Positions 41,045 through 64,000 of a stretch of DNA of 64,000 bases are shown here, in pieces; the first letter of the stretch is position 1; every line of letters starts with the position of its first letter. A program made the translations under genes and the position numbers. The notes below the pieces were generated by a model. That model made no database searches. It saw nothing but the letters and a program-made list of their open reading frames with translations, and was not told the origin of the DNA. The DNA is from Minisyncoccia bacterium (GTDB lineage: Bacteria; Patescibacteriota; Minisyncoccia; Phycocordibacterales; UBA918): NCBI GenBank assembly GCA_046293175.1, contig JBKBPM010000002.1:158428-222427 (forward strand). Reading direction: 5' to 3'.

Positions 41045-41521
41045 AGATAAAGATTGTTGTGGCGAGATACAACCCGCAAAACAGCCAAAGCGCGTGACAG
41101 CATAGTCACGTGCTTTTGCTTTCTCTCGCCAAAGTCATAAATCAGTATTCCAATACGTACTGTCCACCAGTTATCCACATTTGGTGGGGTGTGGTGGCGA
41201 ATATAACTATATTTTTCAATCCTATTTCCGAAAAGACTGGTCTTTTTACAAGAAAGCAAAACCACTCTATGATAGAGGTACCGCACGAGTTCTCCAATCG
41301 TGCGTGTCGGAGGTATAGACACGCCACGTGCACGCCAATTTCATGACGTGAACCATGGCCAGCATGTTCTGGTGTGTCTTTATTTCCCTCATTCTTTCCC
41401 AGACCCAATCGGCACGTAGGACACTAGAGTTAGTCGCTTGAGTACTATACGCACCACCACAGATTGTGTTTGGATGAGAAACCAATTATTACCACTGTCG
41501 CCTAACTGTTCTTGTTGTGAT

Positions 41522-42835
41522 ATGGAAATTAAGCAGATAAAAAAGCGTGACGGTTCAATCAAGCCTTTTGATATTGCAAAGATTGAGCACGCCATTCTGA
41601 GGGCTCTCATGGAGACCAATGCCGGTGGAGAAGCAGATGCCAAAAAAGTTGCAACGCTCGTCCATCAAAAAGTAGTATCAATGTGTGTCCAAGCCGGCAC
41701 GGCTGAAGCTGGTGATCCAAAGGCGCAGAAATGTGTTGATGGATACCCAACCGTCGAAGAAATCCAAGACCTGGTTGAGGCGTCACTCATGGAGCTTAAC
41801 TATTTTGATACCGCCAAGGCGTACATCATTTATCGTAATGAGCGGAAGAAGATGCGTGAGCGAGATATTTTCCGCAAACGCCAGCACCTCAAGCCCTACG
41901 AGTACCCAGAACTGTACGAGTATGTTGATGCTATCCGCCACTCCTACTGGGTACACACTGAATTCAACTTTACCGGTGACGTGCAGCACTTCCACGTGAA
42001 CGTCAACGATGCTGAACGAAACGCTATCAAGAACACAATGCTTGCTATCGCGCAGATTGAAGTCGCGGTGAAAAGCTTTTGGGGGGACATATACAAGAAG
42101 ATGCCAAAGCCAGAGATTGGGGCGGTGGGGTCTACTTTTGCGGAATCTGAGATTCGTCACACTGATGCCTATTCACACCTGCTTGAAATTCTTGGTCTCA
42201 ATAATGAGTTTGCCAAGATCAAAGATATTCCTGTGATTAAGCAGCGTATGGACTACCTTGATAAGGTAGCTGAACTCTCACGTACGCAGGAGAACCGTGA
42301 GTACGCACACGCGATCATGCTCTTCTCACTTTTTATAGAACATGTGTCATTGTTCTCACAGTTCCTCATCATGATGTCATTTAACAAGCACAAGAACTTG
42401 TTTAAAGGTATCAGTAATGCGGTCGAGGCAACCAGTAAAGAAGAGAACCTTCACGGCCTCTTTGGTATTGATGTGATCAACATCATTAAAGAAGAACACC
42501 CAGAATGGTTTGATAAGGCGATGCAAGAAGCAATCTTAAAGGCATGTGAAGAAGCGTACGAAGCTGAAAGTCGCGTGGTGGACTGGATTTTCGAAGCGGG
42601 AGAACTCGACTTTTTGCCGTCACAGAACGTGAAGGAATTTATCAAGAATCGTCTCAATAACTCACTTGCGGCTATTGGTATGCCTCGCCACTTTGAAGTA
42701 AGTGAAGCTCTCCTTGAGGAAACTGATTGGTTTGATAATGAAGTCATTGCGACCAAACACGTCGACTTCTTCGATAAGCGTTCAATCAACTACAACAAAC
42801 GCGCTGCCAGTGTCACCAGTGAAGATTTATTCTAG
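41522..42835 (+). CDS. nrdB: Class I ribonucleotide reductase small (beta/R2) subunit with N-terminal ATP-cone domain
   Basis: Start at MEIKQIKKRDGSIKPFDIAKIEHAI (ATP-cone pattern K.RDG....F...KI); remainder is a ferritin-like R2 fold with the metal-ligand E..H pair (AESEIRHTDAYS); the N-terminal 28 codons of the ORF-track call are discarded. Confidence 0.75.
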   Translation: MEIKQIKKRDGSIKPFDIAKIEHAILRALMETNAGGEADAKKVATLVHQKVVSMCVQAGTAEAGDPKAQKCVDGYPTVEEIQDLVEASLMELNYFDTAKAYIIYRNERKKMRERDIFRKRQHLKPYEYPELYEYVDAIRHSYWVHTEFNFTGDVQHFHVNVNDAERNAIKNTMLAIAQIEVAVKSFWGDIYKKMPKPEIGAVGSTFAESEIRHTDAYSHLLEILGLNNEFAKIKDIPVIKQRMDYLDKVAELSRTQENREYAHAIMLFSLFIEHVSLFSQFLIMMSFNKHKNLFKGISNAVEATSKEENLHGLFGIDVINIIKEEHPEWFDKAMQEAILKACEEAYEAESRVVDWIFEAGELDFLPSQNVKEFIKNRLNNSLAAIGMPRHFEVSEALLEETDWFDNEVIATKHVDFFDKRSINYNKRAASVTSEDLF

Positions 42836-42856: not shown

Positions 42857-44551
42857 ATGTCTATTAACTACCAAGAGCCGTGGTACTGGGTAAATGAAAA
42901 TACCCGAGCCTTCATGTCCCGGGGGTACCTCGTTGACGGTCAGACGACCGAAGAACGAGTTCGTTACATTGGCGAGTACGCCGAAAAAGTATTAAATAAA
43001 CCAGGCTTTGCGAAGAAGTTTGAGGATTATATGAGTCGTGGCTGGATTTCGCTCGCCACACCAGTATGGGCCAACTTTGGTCTTAAGCGTGGTCTACCAA
43101 TCAGTTGTTTTGGCTCGTTTGTGGCAGATGATATGGCGAACATTCTCCATACGCAGGCCGAAGTTGGGATGATGAGTAAGTACGGTGGGGGATGCTCTGC
43201 TTATTTTGGTGATCTTCGTCCACGTGGTAGCGAAATTACCCAGAATGGACACTCATCTGGTCCAGTCCACTTCATGCAGCTGTTTGAAAAGATTCTTGAT
43301 GTGGTGAGTCAAGGAGCAACTCGTCGTGGTGTTTTTGCTGCCTACCTGCCGGTTGAACATCCCGATATTCTTGAGTTTCTCGATATTGGCACCGAAGGGA
43401 ATCCGATTCAAAAAATCAACCATGCAGTGACGGTAACTAATAAGTGGATGGAAGAGATGGTGGCGGGCGATGCTGATAAGCGTGCAATTTGGGCGAAGGT
43501 GATACAGCGCCGCGGTGAAATCGGCTACCCGTACATTATCTTCATTGATAATGCGAACGAAGGGAAGCCAGACGTCTACAAGGACAAGAATCTCCCGATT
43601 TATGCAAGTAATGTCTGTAGTGAGATTATGCTCCCGAGTAACCGTGATTGGTCATTTGTGTGTTGTCTCTCGTCTATTAACATCATGCATTATGATGACT
43701 GGAAGGATACTGATCTCGTCGAAACGATGACCTACTTCCTTGACGCGGTGATGAGTGAGTTTATCTCGAAGCTCGAAGTCATGCGTGATCACGAGGATAA
43801 GGACAAGCGTCTAGCCTTCCGTTTTATGGAACGACCATACAACTTTGCGGTGGCGAACCGTGCGCTGGGACTTGGGGTGCTGGGGTACCACTCATACTTA
43901 CAGTCAAAAGGTCTGCCGTTTGAAAGTGAAGAAGCTAGACGTATCAACAAAGAGATTTTTGCCTTGATGCAAGAGCGGTCACTGAAGGCTTCAGCTGAAA
44001 TGGCTAAAGAGTACGGTGAACCAGAAATCCTTAAGGGTTATGGCCGCCGCCACACAACCACCATGGCGATTGCCCCGACTACCTCATCAGCCTTTATTCT
44101 TGGTCAGGTGTCACAGGGGATTGAACCAATCTGGTCCAACTGCTACATTAAGGACGTGGCGAAGCTCAAGGTGGTTATTAAGAACCCAACACTTGAAACC
44201 TTGCTTGATGAGAAAGGGAAGAACACCAAAGAAGTCTGGGACAGTATTCGTGACAACGATGGTTCGGTGCAACACCTTGATTTTCTCTCTGATGATGAAA
44301 AGGCGGTATTCCGCACCTTTGCCGAGATTGATCAGAGCAAGCTCATTATGCACGCTGGTGAACGGCAAAAGTTTATTGACCAAGGGCAATCACTCAATGT
44401 GATGGTGGCGCCTGATACGCCAGTAAAGGAAATCAACCAGCTCTACCTCCAGGCCTGGAAGCAGGGTTGCAAGGCACTCTACTACCAACACAGTATGAAC
44501 GCCGCACAGCAGTTGACTCGCAAGAAGATTCAGGAACGAGCGCAGAAGTGA
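42857..44551 (+). CDS. nrdA: Ribonucleotide reductase large (alpha) subunit, short form lacking N-terminal ATP-cone
   Basis: 564 aa; conserved catalytic core motifs (CFG...NLC..I pattern: ISCFGSFV, SNVCSEI); paired with ATP-cone NrdB upstream. Confidence 0.85.
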   Translation: MSINYQEPWYWVNENTRAFMSRGYLVDGQTTEERVRYIGEYAEKVLNKPGFAKKFEDYMSRGWISLATPVWANFGLKRGLPISCFGSFVADDMANILHTQAEVGMMSKYGGGCSAYFGDLRPRGSEITQNGHSSGPVHFMQLFEKILDVVSQGATRRGVFAAYLPVEHPDILEFLDIGTEGNPIQKINHAVTVTNKWMEEMVAGDADKRAIWAKVIQRRGEIGYPYIIFIDNANEGKPDVYKDKNLPIYASNVCSEIMLPSNRDWSFVCCLSSINIMHYDDWKDTDLVETMTYFLDAVMSEFISKLEVMRDHEDKDKRLAFRFMERPYNFAVANRALGLGVLGYHSYLQSKGLPFESEEARRINKEIFALMQERSLKASAEMAKEYGEPEILKGYGRRHTTTMAIAPTTSSAFILGQVSQGIEPIWSNCYIKDVAKLKVVIKNPTLETLLDEKGKNTKEVWDSIRDNDGSVQHLDFLSDDEKAVFRTFAEIDQSKLIMHAGERQKFIDQGQSLNVMVAPDTPVKEINQLYLQAWKQGCKALYYQHSMNAAQQLTRKKIQERAQK

Positions 44552-49932: not shown

Positions 49933-50061
49933 GTCGCTAATACATCAGCCATGCTGACAATCCACCCGTCCAGTTCGTGTAACTGGGCGGTTTTTGCATG
50001 TGATTGCGTTTGGGTTCATAGTTTGTTACCTTTGTCCCAGTTGTTGGACAAGGAGATCCAC

Positions 50062-50490
50062 ATGTTAGAAGTGTACGTTGGTGCTGCTCTTACCGGAGCT
50101 CCGCCTGAATTCGTCAATAACTTCCTGCCGGCACTTAAGGCAGGAATTCGCCAGATGGATATCCATGTGTTCGACTTCATCGGTCTGGAGGGAGAAACGG
50201 CACTCAAGGTCTATATTCATGACCGGAACTGCACCGAGCTGGCCGATGTCTGTGTTTTTTTGGTTGGTGAACCATCGACTGGCCTCGGCATGGAAATCAT
50301 GCTGCGGGAGGGGACAGGGAAACCTGCTCTGTTCTTTGCACAGGAGAACGCTCGTGTGACCCGCATGCTTCTCGGTTTTCTCGAGGTGCGCGGGCAGAAA
50401 CTCCACCGCTACAACACTGCCGAAGACATTTGTCATGTGCTGCGGGAGCATGTCCTCGCTCGGGATCCGAACTACTGGTCGCGCGGCTAG
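50062..50490 (+). CDS. Nucleoside 2-deoxyribosyltransferase-like / Rcl(DNPH1)-like protein
   Basis: Start at ATG preceded by AGGAGA SD (inside ORF 49951..50490); N-terminal VYVGAALTG..F and C-terminal ADVCVFLVGEPSTGLGMEIMLREGTGKPAL match the NDT-family A-D/G/E-x-GT-x-E-x-G-x-A-x-GKP signature. Confidence 0.6.
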   Translation: MLEVYVGAALTGAPPEFVNNFLPALKAGIRQMDIHVFDFIGLEGETALKVYIHDRNCTELADVCVFLVGEPSTGLGMEIMLREGTGKPALFFAQENARVTRMLLGFLEVRGQKLHRYNTAEDICHVLREHVLARDPNYWSRG

Positions 50491-50570: not shown

Positions 50571-51674
50571 ATGGAATTGTCGCGACAGGGAGCCTTGCCC
50601 GCCCAACAGCTACAACAGCTTATGGACAGTGGTTTTATAAAAGGAGCAGACACCACTCATGTGTCACCAGCTTCACTTGATCTCACCGTCAGTGATGAGG
50701 TGTATGAAATTGAAGGGCTCCTCTTACCAAAAAGTGGGGAGACCATTAAGAGTCTCTTGCCACTTATGGATGCAAGGCGTATTGATTATAGTAATCCCTG
50801 TCGAGCGAAGAAACTTTACCTCGCTCGCCTCAATGAATCCCTCGAGCTTCCATCTGCTATCTATGGGTACTGCAATCCGAAATCATCAACCGGAAGACTT
50901 GATGTCCATGTACGGGTGCTCGCTGATGGGGTACCACGCTTTGATTCAGTGACTCCAAAGGGTTTTGTAGGTGAGTTATGGGTGGCGATTATCCCGCAGT
51001 CTTTTTCTGTCCAACTTCATGTGGGAACGCCGCTGACCCAGCTCCGCCTTTTTACCGCTGATACCCGCTTTTCAGAACTTGATTTAGAAATTGCCATGAA
51101 AGAAGGTTTGGTCTATAGTCGTGAATCTGGTGAAAAACTTTCGTATAGTGAATTGGTAACTAACGATCAAGATGGGGCAGTGGTACTCACCGCTTTAGTC
51201 GAAGAAGGGCTTTGTGGCTATGAGTGTATAGCGATCCCTGACCAAATTATTGACGTGGCACAAGTGGGTGGCTATGAAGCAGCCGAGTTTTTTAAACCGC
51301 TAACCATTGACCGCGGGGCACTGCGTCTTAAGCGCGACCGCTTTTACATACTCTCGGGTGCTGAAGCCGTACGGATTCCACCAGGATTAGCCTCTGAGAT
51401 GGTGCCAATGGATGAACGCAGTGGTGATTTTCGCTCCCACTATGCCGGTTTCCTTGACCCTGGATGGGGCTACGGACAGGACGGTGCTGGGAAGGGGCGC
51501 CCGTTTACGCTTGAGGTCCGACCGTTTGAGGATTTAGTAGTGAGACCAGGTCAACCAATCGCGAAGATTCGTTTTGAGCGAATGGCTGAGGTGCCCACCT
51601 TTCATTACGACACAAAACAATCAAACTACCTCATCCAGTTTGGTCCAAAACTTGGAAAGCAATTTAAGAGCTAA
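50571..51674 (+). CDS. Tandem dUTPase-fold dCTP deaminase-like protein (PF06559 'DCD'-like)
   Basis: Start at MELSRQG.. (upstream 47 codons overlap previous gene and terminator); both halves resemble Dcd (KSSTGRLDVHVRV ~ GRSSLARLGLMVHV; FLDPGWGYG...FTLEVRPFEDLVVRPGQPIAKIRFERM ~ IDPGWSG..IVLEFYN...LRPGMLIGALSFE). Confidence 0.65.
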   Translation: MELSRQGALPAQQLQQLMDSGFIKGADTTHVSPASLDLTVSDEVYEIEGLLLPKSGETIKSLLPLMDARRIDYSNPCRAKKLYLARLNESLELPSAIYGYCNPKSSTGRLDVHVRVLADGVPRFDSVTPKGFVGELWVAIIPQSFSVQLHVGTPLTQLRLFTADTRFSELDLEIAMKEGLVYSRESGEKLSYSELVTNDQDGAVVLTALVEEGLCGYECIAIPDQIIDVAQVGGYEAAEFFKPLTIDRGALRLKRDRFYILSGAEAVRIPPGLASEMVPMDERSGDFRSHYAGFLDPGWGYGQDGAGKGRPFTLEVRPFEDLVVRPGQPIAKIRFERMAEVPTFHYDTKQSNYLIQFGPKLGKQFKS

Positions 51675-51714: not shown

Positions 51715-53076
51715 CTAGTCCTTTTTTACGATATCGTGCTCACCACGTTTGATATTGAAGCGCCCTGGTTCAGGGTCAAGATGGAGTATAAGGCCACTGT
51801 CACCATAAGCATCTTCAAGCATGTGGGCCATCTCAGCCGCTCTTGCGGCGAGGGTGGGGTGGACGACACTCGTAGCCCGGAGTTCAACGAGATACACCAG
51901 AGCCGGTAGGTCACCGGTGAGGTAATTACTGATGTTGTTGCCCATGGCGTGGTAGTACTGAGCGATATACGCATCATTGGTCAAGGCTTCAATAGCAGCT
52001 TTTTGATTAGCAATAAGCGCTTCTGCTTCGCTGCGCAGGGTTGGGGTGAGTTCATCAAGATACCACTCATGGAAACCGATTTCAGTGGTGAGGAGTGGCA
52101 TGCGCTGTGTCACTGCGCGGTGGCGCTGGATGTCACGGAAGGAACCAAAGTCGAGCGTAAAAGCAAAAGCTACTTCACCAGTTGTACCGAGCCACTTTGG
52201 CAACTCAGTTTTGGCCGGGCGGTTTTTAAGCAGAGACTCGTACGGAATCAGTTCAGTGCGATCAATGCCATCACGCACCAGAGCGAGAGATGGAGTTTCT
52301 GGATCGTGATAGTAATAGTGTGCCATGGTCTCGGCCACATATGCCTCCGTTGCTTCATAGCGCTTCTTTTCGCGACTAAATGAGTTGGGATAGGCAGCAA
52401 TCATGCCGTCTTCGAGCTTCTGCGCAATATCACGTACTTCTGGCAGTGGATGGTGGCGGAGAATAACAATCCGATCTGCAAATTGACGAAGGGTACCACT
52501 CCACGCGAGGTTCGTTGAAGCACCAGCCGGGAGGAAGCCACGACAGATATCAAAAGCTCTAGCGGCAATAGCCTTATCGTATACGGCTTCCTTCTCACCG
52601 TCGCCAAGTGGGTACCGCTCTTTGAGAGCGTCTTTCATCTCGGCGACAGCTTTGAGATAAAAGGCCCGCCAGTTTTCGAGAATGCTTGTACCGGCGTCTG
52701 AAGCAATTGGGTTAATAAACGGTTGATGAGCAAAATCTATATAACGAGTTGATGCCTCCTGGCCGTTGTAGAGCTTGTAGTCCTGAATCGCTTTAGCGGC
52801 GAGCATTGATACTCCTTCAATAAAAACGACCGCAAAACCGCAGTCACCAATTGATTTATGGCCGTAGCCGACATAGTACGTCGACATGAATTTGTCTGCG
52901 CCTTTTTCGGCAAGTACAGTGAGGTGTTCAGCGACACCACCAACCGAGCGAGAGTGGAGCGCTTGGAGCATTGCGAGCGCTTCAGCGGTGAGAGTGGCGC
53001 CTGGATCAATAATAACAATATGACCACCGTCTTTAAGTAATTCTTTTTGATGATTAAGGGATTCAATTGATTGCAT
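51715..53076 (-). CDS. thyX: Flavin-dependent thymidylate synthase ThyX-like, tandem-fused (two ThyX folds in one 453-aa chain)
   Basis: First half aligns to ThyX core but has QDYK in place of RHR while keeping Q.S.RY-like QEASTRY; second half has RHR (DIQRHRAVTQRMP) but lacks the S..S.RY segment; both halves retain the C-terminal R..LP / R.L..F pattern. Confidence 0.7.
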   Translation of the reverse strand: MQSIESLNHQKELLKDGGHIVIIDPGATLTAEALAMLQALHSRSVGGVAEHLTVLAEKGADKFMSTYYVGYGHKSIGDCGFAVVFIEGVSMLAAKAIQDYKLYNGQEASTRYIDFAHQPFINPIASDAGTSILENWRAFYLKAVAEMKDALKERYPLGDGEKEAVYDKAIAARAFDICRGFLPAGASTNLAWSGTLRQFADRIVILRHHPLPEVRDIAQKLEDGMIAAYPNSFSREKKRYEATEAYVAETMAHYYYHDPETPSLALVRDGIDRTELIPYESLLKNRPAKTELPKWLGTTGEVAFAFTLDFGSFRDIQRHRAVTQRMPLLTTEIGFHEWYLDELTPTLRSEAEALIANQKAAIEALTNDAYIAQYYHAMGNNISNYLTGDLPALVYLVELRATSVVHPTLAARAAEMAHMLEDAYGDSGLILHLDPEPGRFNIKRGEHDIVKKD

Positions 53077-53230
53077 ATATCTCTATTGTACGCTTTTTCT
53101 AGGGCAACAATTAAACGATTCTCGGTTTTGACAGGGGACAGTCACTTTGACTAGATTGACCGTTGAGCAAAGCTGTTTTTGAGTGCCTCGAATATTTGGC
53201 TTGAAACCGTGGTATTAGGTAAAATAGCGT

Positions 53231-53926
53231 ATGCCTGGAACTTTAATTGTCCTTGATGGTGCTGATGGCGCTGGCAAGGCTACTCAAACTCGTTTACTCG
53301 TTGATCGCTTAAATGCTGAAGGGTATGTCGTTCATACTCTCGATTTCCCGCAATACACCCAGAATCATTTTGGTCGTCTCCTCCGTGAATGTCTCGATGG
53401 TAAGCGCGGTGATTTTATTGGCCTTGATGCCCGGTTGGCCTCAACGATTTTTGCTGCCGACCGTTTTGAATCAGCGCCGATTATTCGAGAATGGCTTGAA
53501 AGTGGGGCAGTGGTAATTCTCGACCGGTATGTGAGCTCAAATATGCTGCATCAAGGTGCCAAGATTTATGATGCCGAAGAACTATCAAACTTTTTAACCT
53601 GGCTTGATCATATGGAACATGGTGTCTTTGGCATTCCTCGTCCCGACACTATCGTGTATCTTGATGTGCCATTTGATGTTCGAAAAAAGCTCAAAGCTGA
53701 AGCGGTGGCAGCTGGAAAACATGGGGTAGAAGTAAAACTCGATCAAGCCGAAGCTAACGACCAGCATCAGCAAGATGCTGAGGAGAATGCTAAACGTTTA
53801 GTGGCGCTTCATAATGAATGGCGGACGGTAGTTTGTGTAGATGGTGATACACTTTTATCTCGTGAAGCTATCCATGAGCAAGTCTACGAAACCGTAAAGC
53901 CAATCTTGCCGCCACGTTACGAGTAG
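53231..53926 (+). CDS. tmk: Thymidylate kinase-like P-loop kinase (paralog 1)
   Basis: 231 aa; P-loop IVLDGADGAGKATQ, DRY motif (LDRYVSSNMLHQG), Tmk length. Confidence 0.7.
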   Translation: MPGTLIVLDGADGAGKATQTRLLVDRLNAEGYVVHTLDFPQYTQNHFGRLLRECLDGKRGDFIGLDARLASTIFAADRFESAPIIREWLESGAVVILDRYVSSNMLHQGAKIYDAEELSNFLTWLDHMEHGVFGIPRPDTIVYLDVPFDVRKKLKAEAVAAGKHGVEVKLDQAEANDQHQQDAEENAKRLVALHNEWRTVVCVDGDTLLSREAIHEQVYETVKPILPPRYE

Positions 53927-53929
53927 GGT

Positions 53930-54352
53930 ATGGAACTCAAAGTCAAAAAGCTACACCCCGATGCCAAGCTACCGAGCTATGCGCACGCGAGTGATGCGGG
54001 GATGGATTTGTATACGGTTGAGTATTTTGTTATCGAACCAGGAGCGCATGTGATTGCAAAGACCGGTATCGCCCTTGTTATACCAGATGGGTATGCCGCC
54101 CTTGTATGGGACAAAGGTGGTATTGCGAACAAACGTCACCTCAAAACCGTGGGCGGCGTGTTTGATACTGATTATCGGGGGGAGTATCTCATCGGCCTCT
54201 ACAATTTTGGGACGGAAGCACAGGCTTTTAAGGCAGGTGATAAGATTGCGCAGCTCATTATACAACGAGTTGAACACCCGACTCTCATTGAGGTGACTGA
54301 ACTCGATGCAACACCCCGTGGGGAAGGCCGATTTGGTAGTACTGGAGAGTAG
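53930..54352 (+). CDS. dut: dUTP diphosphatase (dUTPase)
   Basis: 140 aa; all five dUTPase motifs (ASDAGMDLY, KTGIAL, GVFDTDYRGE, RGEGRFGSTG). Confidence 0.9.
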   Translation: MELKVKKLHPDAKLPSYAHASDAGMDLYTVEYFVIEPGAHVIAKTGIALVIPDGYAALVWDKGGIANKRHLKTVGGVFDTDYRGEYLIGLYNFGTEAQAFKAGDKIAQLIIQRVEHPTLIEVTELDATPRGEGRFGSTGE

Positions 54353-54361
54353 CGTACAATA

Positions 54362-55051
54362 ATGAAAACATTTATGGAAAAAGCAAAATTGATTGTCGTA
54401 GACGGTGGGGCAAATATTGGTAAGGCGACACAAGCCGACATGCTCATGAACCGGCTCATGAATGAAGGGTATACGGTTGGGAAGATGGATTTCCCGCGCT
54501 ACAACCAAAACACTATTGGCCACTTCATCAATGAGTTTATTGATAGTGATAGTCCATCTTTGGCGACCTTGCCACCCAAGTGTTTTGCGATTCTCTTTGC
54601 GGCTGACCGTTTTGAATCAAAAAAGCAGATTGAAGAATGGATAGCCGAAGGACGGGTGATTATCTTTGACCGGTACGTCAGCGCCTCGATGCTGCACCAG
54701 GGGAGTAAGATTACCGATATCGATGCGCGGGAGGAGTTCCTTCGTTGGGTAGAGCACGTGGAGTATGAAATATTTGGTATGCCGCGCCCCGACCTCACGG
54801 TCTATCTTGATGTACCACCAAATGAGAGTGATAAGCTTCTCGGTTATGTAGAAGAGCTTGGGGTGAAAGTCATAAACGATGAAAGTAAGGCAAAGATCGA
54901 CCAAGCCAAAGTTTCTGATTGCGCAAAGTACCTTGCTGCTATTAATCACAACTGGGTGACGGTACCGTGTATGGCTGATGGTAACCTCCGCAACCGTGAT
55001 GATATTCACGAAGAAGTGTATCAGGCGGTCAAAAGTAAGGTGTTGATTTAA
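54362..55051 (+). CDS. Thymidylate kinase-like P-loop kinase (paralog 2, divergent P-loop)
   Basis: 229 aa; IVVDGGANIGKATQ, FDRYVSASMLHQG; clear paralog of 53231..53926. Confidence 0.6.
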   Translation: MKTFMEKAKLIVVDGGANIGKATQADMLMNRLMNEGYTVGKMDFPRYNQNTIGHFINEFIDSDSPSLATLPPKCFAILFAADRFESKKQIEEWIAEGRVIIFDRYVSASMLHQGSKITDIDAREEFLRWVEHVEYEIFGMPRPDLTVYLDVPPNESDKLLGYVEELGVKVINDESKAKIDQAKVSDCAKYLAAINHNWVTVPCMADGNLRNRDDIHEEVYQAVKSKVLI

Positions 55052-55172: not shown

Positions 55173-55544
55173 CTAGTACATGGCGGTGCGAGCCCGGTTT
55201 ACTATCTCCTTTACATCATGACTTGCTTTTACGATGTAGTCTTCTGGCTTGAGTGATACCGCCTCATAGACATTTTCTGGAGCGCTGTAGTTTGTAAGGT
55301 AGATGACCTTGGCGGTTCGTCCCCAAGCATCTTCACGGATTTTTTTCATCGCTTCATATCCATCCATATTTGGCATATCAATATCCATGAGAATGAGTGA
55401 CGGGTGATATTCAAGCGCAAGAGCAATCGCCTCAGTATTGTCTTTGGCGATTAACACATTGATACCGGCCTCACTAAACGCAAAGCGGTACATTTCGCTC
55501 AGTACCATATCATCATCAACGAGTAAAATAGTTTTTTGGTCCAT
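55173..55544 (-). CDS. Stand-alone response-regulator receiver domain (CheY-like)
   Basis: 123 aa; LLVDDD...LILMDIDMPNMDG...K motif set of receiver domains; no output domain. Confidence 0.8.
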   Translation of the reverse strand: MDQKTILLVDDDMVLSEMYRFAFSEAGINVLIAKDNTEAIALALEYHPSLILMDIDMPNMDGYEAMKKIREDAWGRTAKVIYLTNYSAPENVYEAVSLKPEDYIVKASHDVKEIVNRARTAMY

Positions 55545-55704
55545 ATTGACAGTATATCACCTGCGTAGGCTAGTGGGTAGCAAATCGTTTTCTTTAGCTT
55601 CACTGCCAAAAATCTTGTATACTACAGCTACTAAATATCCGCCCTATGATCTAAGTACCTGCGACATTGATGAGAGGAATTATCTAAAGCTAATTTACTA
55701 TCGT

Positions 55705-56973
55705 ATGGAACACTATTCATTCATCAAAGCGCAGGATCCAGAATTGTATACCGCTCTTGTTGGCGAAGAGGCCCGCGAAGCGCGCGGGGTAGAGCTTATC
55801 CCAAGTGAGAACTACGTCTCACGAGCGGTACTTGAGGCCAATGGTTCTGTGTTTACCAATAAGTACTCTGAGGGGTATCCCGGCAAGCGGTACTACGGCG
55901 GACAAGAGTATACTGATATTGCGGAGACGCTCGCTATCGAGCGGGCCAAAGAACTTTTTAAGGCCAAATATGCTAATGTGCAGCCACTTGGGGGTGCAGC
56001 AGCGAACGTCGCGATGTACTTTGCTTTGATGGAGCCAGGTGATACCGTCCTTGGTATGGATCTCAGTCATGGGGGACACCTCACCCATGGACATCCCACT
56101 ACTGCCATAAACAAAGTCTTCAACTTTGTCCGCTATAAGATGAAAGATGTTGAGACGGGAGAAATCGATTACGAGGAATTACGTCGTGTCGCCCTCGAAT
56201 ATAAACCAAGGGTTATCCTGGCTGGCTTCTCTGCGTATAGTCGTGAGCTTGATTATCAAAAGTTTGTTGATATCGCCAAAGAAGTTGGTGCGTACACCGT
56301 CGCAGATATGGCTCATATTGCTGGACTGATTGCCGGTGGGGTAGCGAAGAATCCGTTTGACTTCGGTTTTGATGTGATTACCACCACTACCCACAAGACA
56401 CTTCGTGGTCCACGTGGGGGAATGATTCTTGTTCGTGATGATGAAGAGATTGCGAAGAAAATCAATAAGGCAGTTTTCCCCGGTATGCAAGGTGGTCCAC
56501 ATATGCACATTATTGCAGCGAAGGCGGTCGCTTTTGGAGAGGCGCTCACACCAGCCTTTAAGGTCTATGCGGCCCAGATTCTCAAAAATGCCAAAGCAAT
56601 GGAAGCGGTCTTTAAGGCTGAAGGTGTACGTCTGCTCTGTGGCGGAACAGATAACCATCTCCTCGTGGCTGATGTCTTTGGAAGTCTTGGGGTCACTGGT
56701 CAGGAGGCCGAGACGGTGCTTGATGAGGTCGGTATCACCCTTAATAAGAATATGATTGCCGACGATACTCGTACGGCGATGGATCCGTCTGGTATTCGCT
56801 TTGGTACCCCAGCGATGACTACTCGAGGCATGAAAGAAGGGGAAGCGACCAAGCTCGCCGAAATCATGATTACTGCCATGCGCGCGAAGTCCGATGCTAG
56901 GAAGAAAGCCGAACTCCAGAAAGAGGTGCAAGCGCTTTGTGAGGCGTTCCCCGTCCCAGAGAAAATGGTTTAA
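55705..56973 (+). CDS. glyA: Serine hydroxymethyltransferase
   Basis: Start at MEHYSFIK (inside ORF 55438..56973; upstream part overlaps the receiver gene on the other strand); PLP-lysine motif TTTTHKTLRGPRGG. Confidence 0.9.
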   Translation: MEHYSFIKAQDPELYTALVGEEAREARGVELIPSENYVSRAVLEANGSVFTNKYSEGYPGKRYYGGQEYTDIAETLAIERAKELFKAKYANVQPLGGAAANVAMYFALMEPGDTVLGMDLSHGGHLTHGHPTTAINKVFNFVRYKMKDVETGEIDYEELRRVALEYKPRVILAGFSAYSRELDYQKFVDIAKEVGAYTVADMAHIAGLIAGGVAKNPFDFGFDVITTTTHKTLRGPRGGMILVRDDEEIAKKINKAVFPGMQGGPHMHIIAAKAVAFGEALTPAFKVYAAQILKNAKAMEAVFKAEGVRLLCGGTDNHLLVADVFGSLGVTGQEAETVLDEVGITLNKNMIADDTRTAMDPSGIRFGTPAMTTRGMKEGEATKLAEIMITAMRAKSDARKKAELQKEVQALCEAFPVPEKMV

Positions 56974-60516: not shown

Positions 60517-63500
60517 ATGTCTAAACAACACGGTCGTGAAAACGACAGTGTCGAGGTAGTAACCTCGACCCCAAAGAGTGACGTTGCTCTGCGCGAAGAG
60601 ACTATTCTCGCGTTTTGGCAAGAGCACGATATTTTTAATAAAACACTAGCGACCCCAGCTGGGGAAGCACCAATTGGTGACTACGTCTTCTATGACGGAC
60701 CACCGTTTGCGACCGGGACACCACACTACGGTCATATACTAGCAAGTACCATCAAGGACGCTGTGCCACGCTTTTGGACTATGCGCGGTTACCGCGTCCC
60801 ACGGAAGTGGGGCTGGGACTGTCATGGTCTGCCACTTGAAAACCTCATCGAGAAGAAACTTGGCCTCGCCACGAAGCGCGACATCGAAGACTATGGCGTG
60901 AAGAACTTCAACGAAGCCGCGCGTGGCACCGTGATGGAGTATGCTGATTATTGGAAGATGGCTATCCCTCGGATGGGACGCTGGGCCGACATGGAGAATG
61001 ACTACAAGACCATGGACAGTACCTACACCGAAAGTGTTTGGTGGGTCTTCTCTGAACTCTACAAAAAAGGTCTTGCCTTTGAAGGCTTCAAGACTATGCA
61101 CCTCTGTCCACGCTGTGGGACAACCCTCTCAAACTTTGAAGTAAACCAGGGCTATAAAGATATCAAAGATATCGCGGTGACGGTGAAGTTGCCACTCCTT
61201 GATGAACAGGGTGCTGTGACTGATACCTCACTCCTCGTGTGGACGACCACTCCCTGGACACTCCCAGGGAACTTGGCGGCTGCTATCAATCGTGAGTTTG
61301 ATTATGTGAAGGTGGCGTTGACTTCCGATGGCGTAACAGAAAATCTTATTATCGCCAAAGGACGCCTCGTACAGCTCGGTGATGCATCGTACGACATAAT
61401 CGAAGAAATGAAGGGCGAAGCCTTGATTGGTCGACGTTATCAACCACCATTTCCATTTTTGGCAGGACAGTCGTTTGACCAGACGAATGCCTGGAAGATT
61501 TGGCATGCGGACTATGTCGAGCTCGGTGAAGAGGGGACCGGTGCTGTGCATATTGCTCCTGCTTATGGTGAGGATGACATGCAGCTCGCGAAGACTAATG
61601 GCGTGCCAATTGTTCACCACGTCGACGAGAGCGGTCGCTTCAAAGACTGGGTGACGGGCTTTAACTGTGCGCTGGTGAAGCCAAAAGATGATGATGCTGC
61701 AGGTGTCGATCACAAAGACACTGATATCGAAATCCTCAAGTCTCTCCAGGCCGCGGGCAAGATTTTTAAGAAAGAGAACATCACGCACAGCTACCCACAC
61801 TGTTGGCGCTGTGATACGCCACTCCTCAATTACGCGACTACCTCGTGGTTTGTGAACGTACCAAAGATCAAAGACGAACTCGTCGCCGTGAACAGCGAAG
61901 TTAATTGGGTGCCAGATCACGTCGGTACCAATCGCTTCGGGAAGTGGCTTGAAGGCGCCCGCGACTGGGCTATCTCTCGTCAGCGCTACTGGGGAGCACC
62001 ACTCCCAATCTGGAAAAATCCGACCACTGGTGAGGTGAAGGTTATTGGCTCGCTTAAGGACCTCCAGTCATATATTCGTAAGAGTGGCAACACCTACACC
62101 ATCACCCGTCATGCTGAGGCAGAGAGTAATATCACGGGTGTGATTGACGCGTTTGCCGATGAGAGCAATCACCTCACTGATAATGGTCGGGCACAGGCCA
62201 AAGCTACTGCCGAGACACTTCGATCTCGCGGTGTTACCCGAATTGTCCACTCGGGAATGACCCGAGCCCGCGAGACGGCCGAACTTATTGCAGCCGAACT
62301 CGGACTTCCGAGTGATGCTGTCATTGCCGATGTAAGACTACAAGAATTTAAGGTAGGAACCGAGTGGGAAGGTAAGACCTGGGCCGAGTTCAACTCGCAG
62401 TTTGCCACTGAGGAAGAAAAGTTTGAGAAGACTTTTACTGGAGGAGAGAGTCGGTACGATCTCCTCAAGCGTGTCGGAGCGTGGCTTTATGAATATGAGT
62501 CCAAGCACCAAAATGAACATACTCTGGTTGTTGGGCACGGTAGTTCACTGTTTGCCCTTGAGGCGGTAGCGCGTGGAGCCAATCACGTAGAAATGATGAC
62601 ACTCAAAAAACAGGGTTACCTGAGCAATAGTGAAGTCCGTGACTTGCCATTTACACCGGTCCCACACAATGACCTCTTCCAGCTCGACTACCATCGACCA
62701 TATATCGACGAGATAGAACTCTTCGATACTGACGGTACGAAGCTCGAGCGTATCAAAGACGTCTTTGACTGTTGGTTTGAAAGTGGGTCGATGCCGTACG
62801 CGCAGCACCACTACATGGGAGAGAATCCTGAAGCCTTTGTGGGTACCTGCTTCCCAGCACAGTTTATCGCCGAAGGGCTGGATCAGACACGTGGATGGTT
62901 CTACTCACTGATTGTGCTTGGTACCGCACTTTTTGGTCGCTCTCCGTACGAGAACGTGATCGTAAACGGTCTGGCACTCGCGGAAGATGGCAAGAAAATG
63001 TCGAAGAGTCTCCGCAATTATCCTGATCCGATGGAGCTCGTAGACCGGGTTGGTGCCGACGCTATCCGTTACTACATGATGTCTGCGCCAATTATTCGTG
63101 GCGAAGACCTCAACTTCAGTGAGAAGGAAGTAACTGAACAACAGCGCAAGAATATTGGTCGTTTGCACAATGTACTCGCCATGTACGAGATGTACGCAGA
63201 TGGTACCAAGGCAGATGGTACATCGAGCAATGTCCTCGACTGCTGGATTGTCTCACGCCTCAATCAGCTGATTGGGGAAGTGACAGCTGGCTACGAAAGC
63301 TACGAGCTTGATAAAGCCACTCGTCCACTGGCTGACTTTATCGATGATGTGTCTGTCTGGTACCTCCGCCGCAGTCGTGAGCGCCTGAAGCAGGATTCGA
63401 AAATTGAGGCATCTCCGTCGTTGCGGGTCCCAGCCGATTCTTTCGCCGTAGCAGAAAGTACGTCTCCATCATCAGCTTTCCCGCGCCTTGCATCTGACAC

Positions 63501-64000
63501 TCAATTATCAAATCCTGAGACAAGCGATAAAGAATTGGCATTAGGAACCCTCCGCTTTATCCTGCGAGAACTGGCGAAGGTAATGGCACCAGCCATGCCG
63601 TTCTACGCTGAGTATCTCTACCGCGCGGTGCGCGATGAGAGCGAAGCTGAGAGTGTGCATCTCACGAAGTGGCCGGTAGCAGGGGATACAAACGAGGAGG
63701 TTGTTGAATTGATGAAGCAGGTACGAGAAGTGGTGACCGCAGCCCTTGAAGCACGCACCAAGTCTGGTATCAAAGTGCGTCAGCCCATCGCGAGTGTCAC
63801 TGGTCCAGAGTTGCCAGCGGAGTACCAGTCAATTGTCCTCGATGAACTTAATGCCAAGAGCTATCTAGTAGGGGAGATGATAGCGATTGATACCAACCTC
63901 ACCCCAGAACTTATCGCCGAAGGAGCGGTGCGCGAACTCATGCGGGCCATCCAGGATATGCGTAAAAAGGCCGACCTTACTCCAGCGGATCTCGTTATAC
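60517..64000 (+). CDS. ileS: Isoleucine--tRNA ligase, 5' partial (runs off window end), with inserted histidine-phosphatase-like domain
   Basis: My own frame-1 translation (no track ORF, because no stop in window): PPFATGTPHYGH (HIGH), ...KMSKS; insertion ~62030-62760 contains RHAEAESN...LVVGHGSS (histidine phosphatase/PGAM signature). Confidence 0.9.
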   Translation, partial: MSKQHGRENDSVEVVTSTPKSDVALREETILAFWQEHDIFNKTLATPAGEAPIGDYVFYDGPPFATGTPHYGHILASTIKDAVPRFWTMRGYRVPRKWGWDCHGLPLENLIEKKLGLATKRDIEDYGVKNFNEAARGTVMEYADYWKMAIPRMGRWADMENDYKTMDSTYTESVWWVFSELYKKGLAFEGFKTMHLCPRCGTTLSNFEVNQGYKDIKDIAVTVKLPLLDEQGAVTDTSLLVWTTTPWTLPGNLAAAINREFDYVKVALTSDGVTENLIIAKGRLVQLGDASYDIIEEMKGEALIGRRYQPPFPFLAGQSFDQTNAWKIWHADYVELGEEGTGAVHIAPAYGEDDMQLAKTNGVPIVHHVDESGRFKDWVTGFNCALVKPKDDDAAGVDHKDTDIEILKSLQAAGKIFKKENITHSYPHCWRCDTPLLNYATTSWFVNVPKIKDELVAVNSEVNWVPDHVGTNRFGKWLEGARDWAISRQRYWGAPLPIWKNPTTGEVKVIGSLKDLQSYIRKSGNTYTITRHAEAESNITGVIDAFADESNHLTDNGRAQAKATAETLRSRGVTRIVHSGMTRARETAELIAAELGLPSDAVIADVRLQEFKVGTEWEGKTWAEFNSQFATEEEKFEKTFTGGESRYDLLKRVGAWLYEYESKHQNEHTLVVGHGSSLFALEAVARGANHVEMMTLKKQGYLSNSEVRDLPFTPVPHNDLFQLDYHRPYIDEIELFDTDGTKLERIKDVFDCWFESGSMPYAQHHYMGENPEAFVGTCFPAQFIAEGLDQTRGWFYSLIVLGTALFGRSPYENVIVNGLALAEDGKKMSKSLRNYPDPMELVDRVGADAIRYYMMSAPIIRGEDLNFSEKEVTEQQRKNIGRLHNVLAMYEMYADGTKADGTSSNVLDCWIVSRLNQLIGEVTAGYESYELDKATRPLADFIDDVSVWYLRRSRERLKQDSKIEASPSLRVPADSFAVAESTSPSSAFPRLASDTQLSNPETSDKELALGTLRFILRELAKVMAPAMPFYAEYLYRAVRDESEAESVHLTKWPVAGDTNEEVVELMKQVREVVTAALEARTKSGIKVRQPIASVTGPELPAEYQSIVLDELNAKSYLVGEMIAIDTNLTPELIAEGAVRELMRAIQDMRKKADLTPADLVI

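Follow-up and report, generated by a model that had tools for sequence, protein, structure and literature searches.

The thymidylate synthase genes thyA and thyX have an established complementary distribution in bacterial genomes. In Pseudomonas putida KT2440, where more than one gene of the genome carries a thymidylate kinase (Tmk) annotation, the resident tmk is disrupted and a T4-like dNMP kinase has come in with a genomic island (PMC10653934). In Sulfolobus the heteromeric polyphosphate kinase PPK3 is built from two neighbouring paralogues of the Tmk family, one of which has reduced catalytic features (PMC12995831). By sequence, the best solved relative of the kinases considered here is the thymidylate kinase (TMPK) of Mycobacterium tuberculosis (Mtb; PRK07933; 1g3u, 1gsi). 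In that enzyme Phe70 stacks, Arg74 and Asn100 contact the thymine (Arg74 at its O4), Arg95 and Tyr39 contact the phosphate, and D9 is the P-loop carboxylate that binds the 3'-OH of dTMP (PMC3619541). Here we describe two Tmk-like genes, tmk1 and tmk2, that flank dut in a 64,000-nt stretch of contig JBKBPM010000002.1 (hereafter the window, meaning that whole stretch). The reading we favour, and hold to be fairly probable, is that Tmk1 and Tmk2 are isofunctional dTMP kinases from sister clades (T1 and T2), joined by the exchange of a thymidylate-synthase block.

How does this locus compare with the described systems? As in the displacement of thyA (with DHFR, dihydrofolate reductase) by thyX, the same slot in sister genomes is held either by ThyA and DHFR or by ThyX without DHFR. 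Unlike plain thyA/thyX displacement, a multi-gene block is involved, which also swaps the dUMP-producing enzyme (dcd1, dcd2 or dCMP deaminase). Since the thyX block carries a Tmk of its own, the recipient ends with two kinases. The locus resembles the P. putida island in that foreign DNA for an essential activity lands at the locus of that activity, and in that there is more than one Tmk annotation per genome (PMC10653934). However, both Tmk-family genes of the window are intact, and no mobile-element genes are visible at the window locus.

The three genes at the centre of the locus are these:

53231-53926, plus strand: tmk1 (T1 clade), 231 aa; PF02223; the open reading frame (ORF) lies exactly at the coordinates of the initial annotation
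53930-54352, plus strand: dut, trimeric-type dUTPase, 140 aa; PF00692, TIGR00576
54362-55051, plus strand: tmk2 (T2 clade, sub-clade without the P-loop Asp), 229 aa as called; PF02223

Together they form one tight operon, with intergenic gaps of 3 and 9 nt. The initial annotation had placed two Tmk-like genes around dut at 53231-55051, and the ORFs and P-loops are as it gave them. The dut product scores 94.8 bits with PF00692 and 130.7 bits with TIGR00576, which exceeds the cutoff of 102.55. Translation of Tmk2 probably starts at the ATG at 54374 (Met5), because about 90% of the orthologues begin there and DNA homology with a sister genome begins at 54373.

Both kinases score well above the PF02223 cutoff of 27 bits (Tmk1, 70.3; Tmk2, 66.3). 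Their best PDB sequence match is the Mtb TMPK (Tmk1, 1g3u, E 1.5e-19; Tmk2, E 1e-12). Foldseek of the AlphaFold2 (AF2) models (pLDDT 84.6 for Tmk1 and 81.0 for Tmk2) against the PDB returned TMPKs as all of the top 50 matches for each, with target-length-normalised TM-scores of about 0.63-0.85. The predicted fold of both is that of a thymidylate kinase of the M. tuberculosis type. Like the Mtb enzyme, the two kinases have FPxY (Tyr39), the aromatic stack (Phe70), Arg74 and DRY (Arg95). A long LID and an insertion behind the DRY helix are likewise common to all three enzymes, and Tmk1 further retains the equivalents of Mtb D9, D163 and E166. Unlike the Mtb enzyme, both kinases have Ala for Arg14 and His for Tyr103. 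Tmk2 differs further: D9 is replaced by Ala and G10 by Asn, the LID has no Arg, and in the window copy Asn100 is replaced by Ser.

The P-loops read DGADGAGKAT in Tmk1 and DGGANIGKAT in Tmk2. The Walker A and DRY residues are present in both proteins (K16/T18 and D98-R99-Y100 in Tmk1; K21/T23 and D103-R104-Y105 in Tmk2) and invariant in both clades. The initial annotation had the two kinases share DRYxxSxxxHQG. Tmk1 (DRYVSSNMLHQG) matches this pattern. Tmk2 (DRYVSASMLHQG) does not, because its sixth residue is Ala where the pattern had Ser; the motif that both truly share is DRYVSxxMLHQG.

Tmk1 and Tmk2 are 43% identical over 221 aa (BLASTP, E 3e-63), a similarity far beyond chance. They belong to separate orthogroups, each conserved to 55-65% identity in other Patescibacteria. 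In a neighbour-joining (NJ) tree T1 and T2 are separate sister clades, and each kinase is 55-96% identical to its orthologues, as against 43% to the other. The paralogues are thus old and clearly distinct, as the initial annotation had it; they are not recent tandem duplicates, one of the outcomes that the annotation had set against its own proposal.

In what company do the two kinases occur elsewhere? About 120 related loci (numbered with the prefix L) were collected and annotated with clade-specific hidden Markov models and reference proteins. Across Patescibacteria a Tmk of this type is usually found with glyA, dut and either thyA or thyX, and nearly all loci have a single Tmk. Within the Paceibacteria subgroup that contains the window, the slot between the thymidylate synthase and glyA is filled in the following ways:

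Tmk1-dut, in the order thyA/thyX(-)-tmk1-dut-glyA: L002, L020, L032-35, L065
dut-Tmk2, in the order thyA(-)-dut-tmk2-glyA, with a MazG-like gene for dut in L010 and L015: L007-12, L015, L017-19, L048, L115-118
Tmk2 alone, in the order thyA-tmk2-glyA: L001, L006, L050
E. coli-type Tmk with MazG, in the order thyX(-)-E. coli-type Tmk-MazG-glyA: L113/114
Tmk1-dut-Tmk2: the window, L004, L013, L119-121
Tmk1-(MazG-like)-Tmk2: L122, L123
E. coli-type Tmk-MazG-Tmk2: L014
Tmk1-E. coli-type Tmk-MazG-Tmk2: L124

Each kinase type is therefore, in some genomes, the sole Tmk gene of an otherwise complete dTMP cluster. Tmk2 is the only Tmk gene in the clusters of L006 (92-93% identical to the window copy), L115-118 (78-87%) and L007-L012; within the genus, Tmk1 occurs only in thyX-type members. 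We found nothing specific in the literature on Tmk paralogues in Patescibacteria, or the Candidate Phyla Radiation (CPR).

Three Tmk-family genes stand in a row in L124:1358-3866 (Tmk1, E. coli-type Tmk, MazG, Tmk2). A pyrophosphatase of the MazG/PRA-PH-like kind lies at the position of the window's dut in several loci, for example L014:8932-10690 and L123:5956-7672. Two candidate relics were rejected: a weak T1 match in L014, considered as a Tmk1 pseudogene, is due to an intact E. coli-type Tmk with a MazG-like gene behind it, and a 153-aa ORF in the Tmk2 slot of L113, considered as a Tmk2 remnant, has no similarity to Tmk.

By what route did two such kinases come to stand side by side? Close relatives of the window share Tmk2 (78-96% identical) and glyA (90-96%) and differ upstream. 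The upstream genes are orf142-dcd2-thyX(-)-tmk1-dut in the window, L004 and L119-121. In L006, whose Tmk2 and glyA are 92-94% identical to those of the window, DHFR-CYTH-dcd1-thyA stands in place of orf142-dcd2-thyX-tmk1-dut, and in L115-118 and L007 the upstream genes are DHFR, dCMP deaminase and thyA(-)-dut. DNA homology between the window and L006 ends at 49994 and restarts at 54373, the start of Tmk2; with L115, L118 and L007 it restarts at 53929/53930, the start of dut, and runs on through Tmk2. These stop and restart points place the borders of the exchange at gene starts.

A second instance, distant from the first, is provided by L012 and L013, which are close to one another (glyA 96%, Tmk2 86%) and of which only L013 has dcd2-thyX-tmk1. 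The dut of L013 is 59% identical to that of L012, as against 73-74% to the dut of thyX-type loci; its Tmk1 is 72-76% identical to those of T1-only lineages, as against 66% to that of the window. In NJ trees of Tmk2 and of glyA with DUF2914, thyX loci are interleaved with thyA loci. Between L004 and L119 the synonymous divergence (dS) is 0.11 for tmk1, 0.24 for thyX, 0.38 for dcd2, 0.49 for dut, 0.89 for tmk2 and 1.26 for glyA. This gradient suggests a recent recombinational spread of the thyX block among strains, although it is less marked and uneven when the window itself is compared.

The following mechanism would account for the pair. Tmk2-glyA would be the resident part, Tmk2 lying always beside glyA and staying in place while the upstream genes change. 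The exchangeable block would consist of orf142, dcd2, thyX and tmk1, alternating in this genus with at least two ThyA/DHFR-based blocks, and would have been swapped by recombination at gene borders several independent times. With the incoming kinase placed upstream of dut and the resident kinase left downstream, two Tmks would come to flank dut. For each transfer event we infer the direction, gain or loss. Most likely the pair represents two old kinase lineages, sister clades, set side by side, rather than a recent duplication or a modification module.

Do the active sites of the two clades differ? We aligned 120 orthologues of each kinase with the Mtb, human and E. coli enzymes and took residue roles from the Mtb enzyme. 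The dTMP contacts are kept in both clades: FP[QR]Y, [YF]AxDR, DRY and the Asn (100% in T1, 86% in T2). In Tmk1 they are F74, R78, N104 and Y42, and in Tmk2 F79, R83 and Y47. Positions conserved in 100% of the T1 clade are D12, K16, T18, F39-P40, Y42, R78, D98-R99-Y100, N104, the LID R151, D171 and E174. The P-loop and LID compare as follows:

P-loop, T1 clade: DG[GA]DGAGKATQ, the Asp invariant
P-loop, T2 clade: DGGxN[VI]GKATQAD, with Asn in 97% (at the class-I Arg position) and Asp in only 37%
LID, T1 clade: R151 invariant (100%), K163 (88%)/H164, and acidic D171/E174, equivalent to Mtb D163/E166
LID, T2 clade: 4 aa shorter and without Arg; S156, K158 (93%) and Y162; acidic pair variable
Invariant or near-invariant residues of the T2 clade's own: D26, K41, R46, R98, D121, R123 and E125, of which R123 is invariant and R98 near-invariant

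The P-loop carboxylate is D12 in Tmk1 (100% in the clade); Tmk2 has Ala17 in its place, followed by N18. The window Tmk2 falls in a monophyletic sub-clade that lacks the P-loop Asp; G65 and D66 are lost there too, and E164 (92%) and E174 (59%) are gained. Intermediate P-loops occur in other loci (DGADGAGKAT, DGADNSGKAT, DGGDNVGKAT, DGGANVGKAT) and suggest that the Tmk2 P-loop changed stepwise, in that order. Judged from the alignment, then, the change in Tmk2 is on the 3'-OH/Mg and phosphoryl-transfer side, not in the base pocket. Separately, His occupies the position of Mtb Tyr103 in about 98-100% of both clades, where the Mtb, human and E. coli enzymes have a Tyr or Phe that is said to keep out the ribose 2'-OH. 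Tyr or Phe is still found there in more basal Patescibacteria Tmks.

The initial annotation had called Tmk2 the more divergent copy, and its altered P-loop and LID agree with this. It had also proposed that LID and base-recognition residues be compared for signs of a new specificity: the former do differ in Tmk2, but the base pocket is unchanged. A shift to dCMP or a modified dUMP, which it had entertained for one copy, finds no support, since the base and phosphate residues (FPxY, aromatic stack, xDR Arg, DRY, Asn/His/Gln) are the same in both clades and give no hint of a switch to cytosine or modified uracil. Tmk2 may nevertheless have changed in function.

If both proteins are dTMP kinases, what would they do here? 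Every identified enzyme of the cluster fits the single pathway dCTP -> dUTP -> dUMP -> dTMP -> dTDP. A two-domain dCTP deaminase would convert dCTP to dUTP, dut would convert dUTP to dUMP, and ThyX would methylate dUMP to dTMP with methylene-tetrahydrofolate from the neighbouring serine hydroxymethyltransferase (SHMT). Tmk would then convert dTMP to dTDP, and both proteins are predicted to catalyse this reaction, dTMP + ATP -> dTDP. Many related genomes have one paralogue or the other as the only Tmk gene of this cluster, which speaks for both being working dTMP kinases. In the Tmk2-only clusters of L006 and L115-118 no other kinase was found within 8-10 kb on either side, and the small unknown ORFs of L115, searched for a hidden kinase, gave no kinase match. 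None of the 120 best T1 matches lies on the long T2-only contigs (388, 126, 89, 72 and 62 kb), and the Tmk of the L014 type has only about 11 close relatives, none of them on long Tmk2-only contigs. Tmk2-only genomes presumably have no other Tmk elsewhere.

Both kinases are under strong purifying selection and neither is decaying. Within the genus, the ratio of nonsynonymous to synonymous divergence (dN/dS) is 0.08 for Tmk1 and 0.03 for Tmk2, as compared with 0.02-0.04 for glyA, thyX, dcd2 and dut. It is not relaxed for Tmk2 in two-kinase genomes relative to Tmk2-only genomes (0.03-0.04). A degenerate second copy, the other outcome that the initial annotation had set against its proposal, is not what these values describe.

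A number of observations weigh against two isofunctional dTMP kinases. The sole-Tmk counts cover clusters rather than whole genomes, so that a further Tmk may lie elsewhere in Tmk2-only genomes. A Tmk annotation is itself no guarantee of activity: P. putida PP_3363 carries one, yet is not a TMPK in vivo (PMC10653934), and the same is true of Sulfolobus PPK3 (PMC12995831). Both kinases fall below the cutoffs of TIGR00041 (Tmk1 72.3 and Tmk2 67.6 bits; cutoff 83.25) and PRK07933 (129.6 and 100.9 bits; cutoff 193). Being under these NCBIfam equivalog cutoffs, they are divergent members whose function is not assigned automatically. Tmk2 lacks the P-loop carboxylate (Mtb D9, human D15, E. coli E12), unlike all the characterised TMPKs aligned. 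It has no Arg in P-loop or LID, with only K158 there; its counterpart of the acidic LID pair Mtb D163/E166 is out of register; and it has Ser109 where the Asn equivalent to Mtb Asn100 is expected. Among the T2 lineages sampled a second Tmk is present in 6/6 with thyX (one of which has three Tmk genes) and in 1/16 with thyA (Fisher p = 9e-5, by a test that ignores phylogeny). Two copies under purifying selection in a streamlined genome exceed what simple redundancy would lead one to expect. Finally, all the trees are NJ trees without support values.

The main alternative is functional divergence: the Asp-less Tmk2 sub-clade would no longer be an efficient or exclusive dTMP kinase. Its sugar and 3'-OH recognition might be altered, it might have another substrate (dUMP, for example), or its phosphate donor or regulation might differ; Tmk1 or the E. 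coli-type Tmk would supply the canonical dTMP kinase activity where present. Such divergence is suggested by the sub-clade's losses of D17 (the 3'-OH/Mg ligand), G65 and D66, by its gains of E164 and E174 and its shortened LID, and by the Asn at the class-I Arg position throughout most of T2. It is also consistent with the purifying selection on both copies. Moreover, in the loci sampled a second Tmk is found only beside an Asp-less T2: the loci whose T2 keeps the P-loop Asp number 7, all of them are thyA loci, and none (0/7) has a second Tmk. L014 and L124 keep T2 even beside the E. coli-type Tmk and MazG in the Tmk1-dut slot, and L124 has three Tmk genes. That a streamlined genome has kept two or three kinases for long would fit some division of labour among them.

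Against divergence, the Asp-less T2 is the sole Tmk gene in otherwise complete dTMP clusters (L006 and L115-118, cited above), and its base- and phosphate-binding residues are unchanged. The co-occurrence of ThyX with a second Tmk is mostly explained by physical linkage, because every thyX of a donor-type locus has a divergently oriented Tmk as its neighbour, and the Fisher test takes no account of descent. We regard divergence as possible but rather unlikely. A narrower form of it strikes us as improbable: that the sub-clade, recognisable by its P-loop DGG[A/V/S]N[VI]GKATQAD, the absence of a P-loop carboxylate and of a LID Arg, and its relocated LID glutamates, is a functionally shifted TMPK descendant that suffices with ThyA but not with ThyX. 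This would explain the extra canonical Tmk at every ThyX locus of the lineage. If true, it would amount to a previously unrecognised coupling of thymidylate-synthase type to dTMP-kinase type, or to a new substrate or donor specificity in the Tmk fold.

Might Tmk1 and Tmk2 instead be the catalytic and regulatory subunits of one enzyme, after the manner of Sulfolobus PPK3, or might Tmk2 be a pseudo-kinase partner? They are adjacent, co-transcribed paralogues of equal length, the catalytic set of Tmk2 is weakened, and Saci_2019/2020 provide a precedent (PMC12995831). Tmk1 even gives a weak local match to the PPK3 chains 9h8j_B and 9gp9_A (E about 4e-4), although this covers 49 residues of the P-loop only; Tmk2 has no PPK3 match at E <= 1e-3, and past the P-loop there is no meaningful sequence similarity between PPK3 and either kinase. 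The PPK3 subunits always co-occur (PMC12995831), whereas each of our proteins is found without the other in most related loci, so that they are not obligate partners. The PPK3 operon contains ppx, CHAD and SixA (pst) (PMC12995831); no ppx, CHAD, SixA or pst genes lie near the window pair, whose neighbours, dcd, dut, thyX and glyA, are all genes of the dTTP pathway. The dTMP-binding residues, moreover, are kept in both kinases. On context, co-occurrence and similarity we rejected a PPK3-like pair, and a heteromer of any kind seems to us very improbable.

The remaining features of the cluster, and the divergent intergenic region, are:

50059-50490, plus strand: orf142, a small conserved ORF of 143 aa, first gene of the variable block; weak resemblance to DNPH1/Rcl (2'-deoxynucleoside 5'-phosphate N-hydrolase)
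50571-51674, plus strand: dcd2, two-domain dCTP deaminase, 367 aa; Pfam DCD_N, DCD and DCD_C, E 1e-36 to 1e-39
51715-53076, minus strand: ThyX-like flavin-dependent thymidylate synthase, 453 aa, long and divergent in sequence; Pfam Thy1; divergently oriented to tmk1
53077-53230, no strand: divergent intergenic region between thyX and tmk1-dut-tmk2, with promoter-like sites
55173-55544, minus strand: stand-alone response-regulator receiver domain, between tmk2 and glyA; PF00072, 77 bits
55705-56973, plus strand: glyA, SHMT, 422 aa; PF00464, E 7e-154; constant right flank of the cluster

The dCTP deaminase, ThyX, Tmk1, dut, Tmk2 and SHMT genes form a conserved dTTP-synthesis cluster. It lies between secE-nusG-rplK and argS-ileS; to the right of glyA, which adjoins a Tmk gene in most related loci, come a DUF2914 protein and then arginyl-tRNA synthetase. 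The window has 7 scattered tRNA genes, and a metagenome-assembled genome of Candidatus Paceibacteria encodes, on a 256-kb contig, a protein 100% identical to its Tmk1. The DNA of the window is cellular, from the chromosome of a Candidatus Paceibacteria (CPR) bacterium, and not phage.

The orf142 product matches DNPH1 (4fyh) weakly in the PDB (phmmer, E 0.0039, residues 50-107) and no family in Pfam or PHROG searches. Homologues lie at the same position in L004, L007, L011-13 and L119, and not in L006; in several lineages orf142 is the left edge of the dTMP cluster, with either dcd2 or DHFR as its neighbour. The dcd2 product scores 248.7 bits with NCBIfam PRK07559, under the cutoff of 283, and the gene accompanies thyX in nearly all thyX loci, the exception being L122 with a short dcd1. 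Its mechanical ORF start at 50430 is an over-extension; homology and orthologue lengths make the ATG at 50571 the most likely start. Likewise, the mechanical start of glyA at 55438 is an over-extension, homology beginning at about 55695-55708 and the start being most likely at 55705.

The ThyX-like protein scores 51.7 bits with Pfam Thy1 (cutoff 24.8), over residues 56-230 only, and 24 bits with TIGR02170 (cutoff 87.9). A phmmer search of the PDB gave no match, and BLASTP of its two halves found no internal duplication. Inspection by eye places a QxSxRY-like motif in the N-terminal half of the protein and an RHR motif in the C-terminal one. All dcd2-thyX blocks have a conserved orthologue of about 430-470 aa, and in the sister genomes L006 and L115 the slot of this gene is filled by ThyA and DHFR. 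Sigma-70-like matches on the plus strand of the intergenic region, at 53128-53157 (10/12) and 53196-53225 (9/12), are only suggestive of promoters because their number does not exceed the shuffled expectation. The receiver domain was seen only in the window and its close relatives L004, L006 and L119-121. It did not turn up in L115, L118, the L008-L014 group or other lineages, and its surroundings yielded no partner kinase.

Elsewhere in the window, isoleucyl-tRNA synthetase (60517-64000, plus strand, running past the window end) has a PF00300 histidine-phosphatase domain (104.9 bits, residues 529-691) inserted in its catalytic tRNA-synt_1 domain, an architecture also recorded for the orthologues in L111, L118, L119, L122 and L124. 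A class I ribonucleotide reductase (41438-42835 and 42857-44551, both plus strand) carries an ATP-cone on its small subunit (NrdB-like, residues 33-138); its large subunit, short at 564 aa, gave no ATP-cone match.

The initial annotation had likened the locus to the nucleotide-modification modules of phages, and two dNMP-kinase-like genes beside dut, an unusually divergent ThyX-like gene and a small neighbour with a weak DNPH1-like match might seem to recommend this. Yet the cluster is a conserved chromosomal one; PHROG and phage tblastn searches gave only generic, distant thymidylate kinases, the best phage relatives being ordinary Tmks of about 30% identity, and a phage origin was rejected. 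That one kinase phosphorylates a modified dNMP (hydroxymethyl-dUMP) or dCMP for non-canonical DNA is scarcely credible, since the cluster has no phage context, no ThyA-type hydroxymethylase and no glycosyl- or amino-transferases, since sister genomes have ordinary ThyA and DHFR where the window has the ThyX-like gene, an alternation to be expected of a true thymidylate synthase, and since retention of the Arg74- and Asn100-type thymine contacts argues against cytosine.

What, then, does the pair mean? A suspicious duplicated nucleotide kinase can come from the ordinary exchange of pathway blocks. The dTTP cluster of Paceibacteria would be a hot spot of such exchange, where swaps at gene borders involve thyA and thyX, three routes to dUMP, dut and MazG, and three kinds of Tmk. 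The result is of use in annotating CPR genomes, and calls for caution in taking paralogue pairs for modification modules. The P-loop Asp of TMPK governs the discrimination of 3'-modified nucleotides such as AZT-MP (azidothymidine monophosphate). All characterised TMPKs hold the sugar 3'-OH with this Asp. The T2 clade is a naturally occurring variant that lacks it and, if Tmk2 is fully active, would change the view of what a TMPK active site needs.

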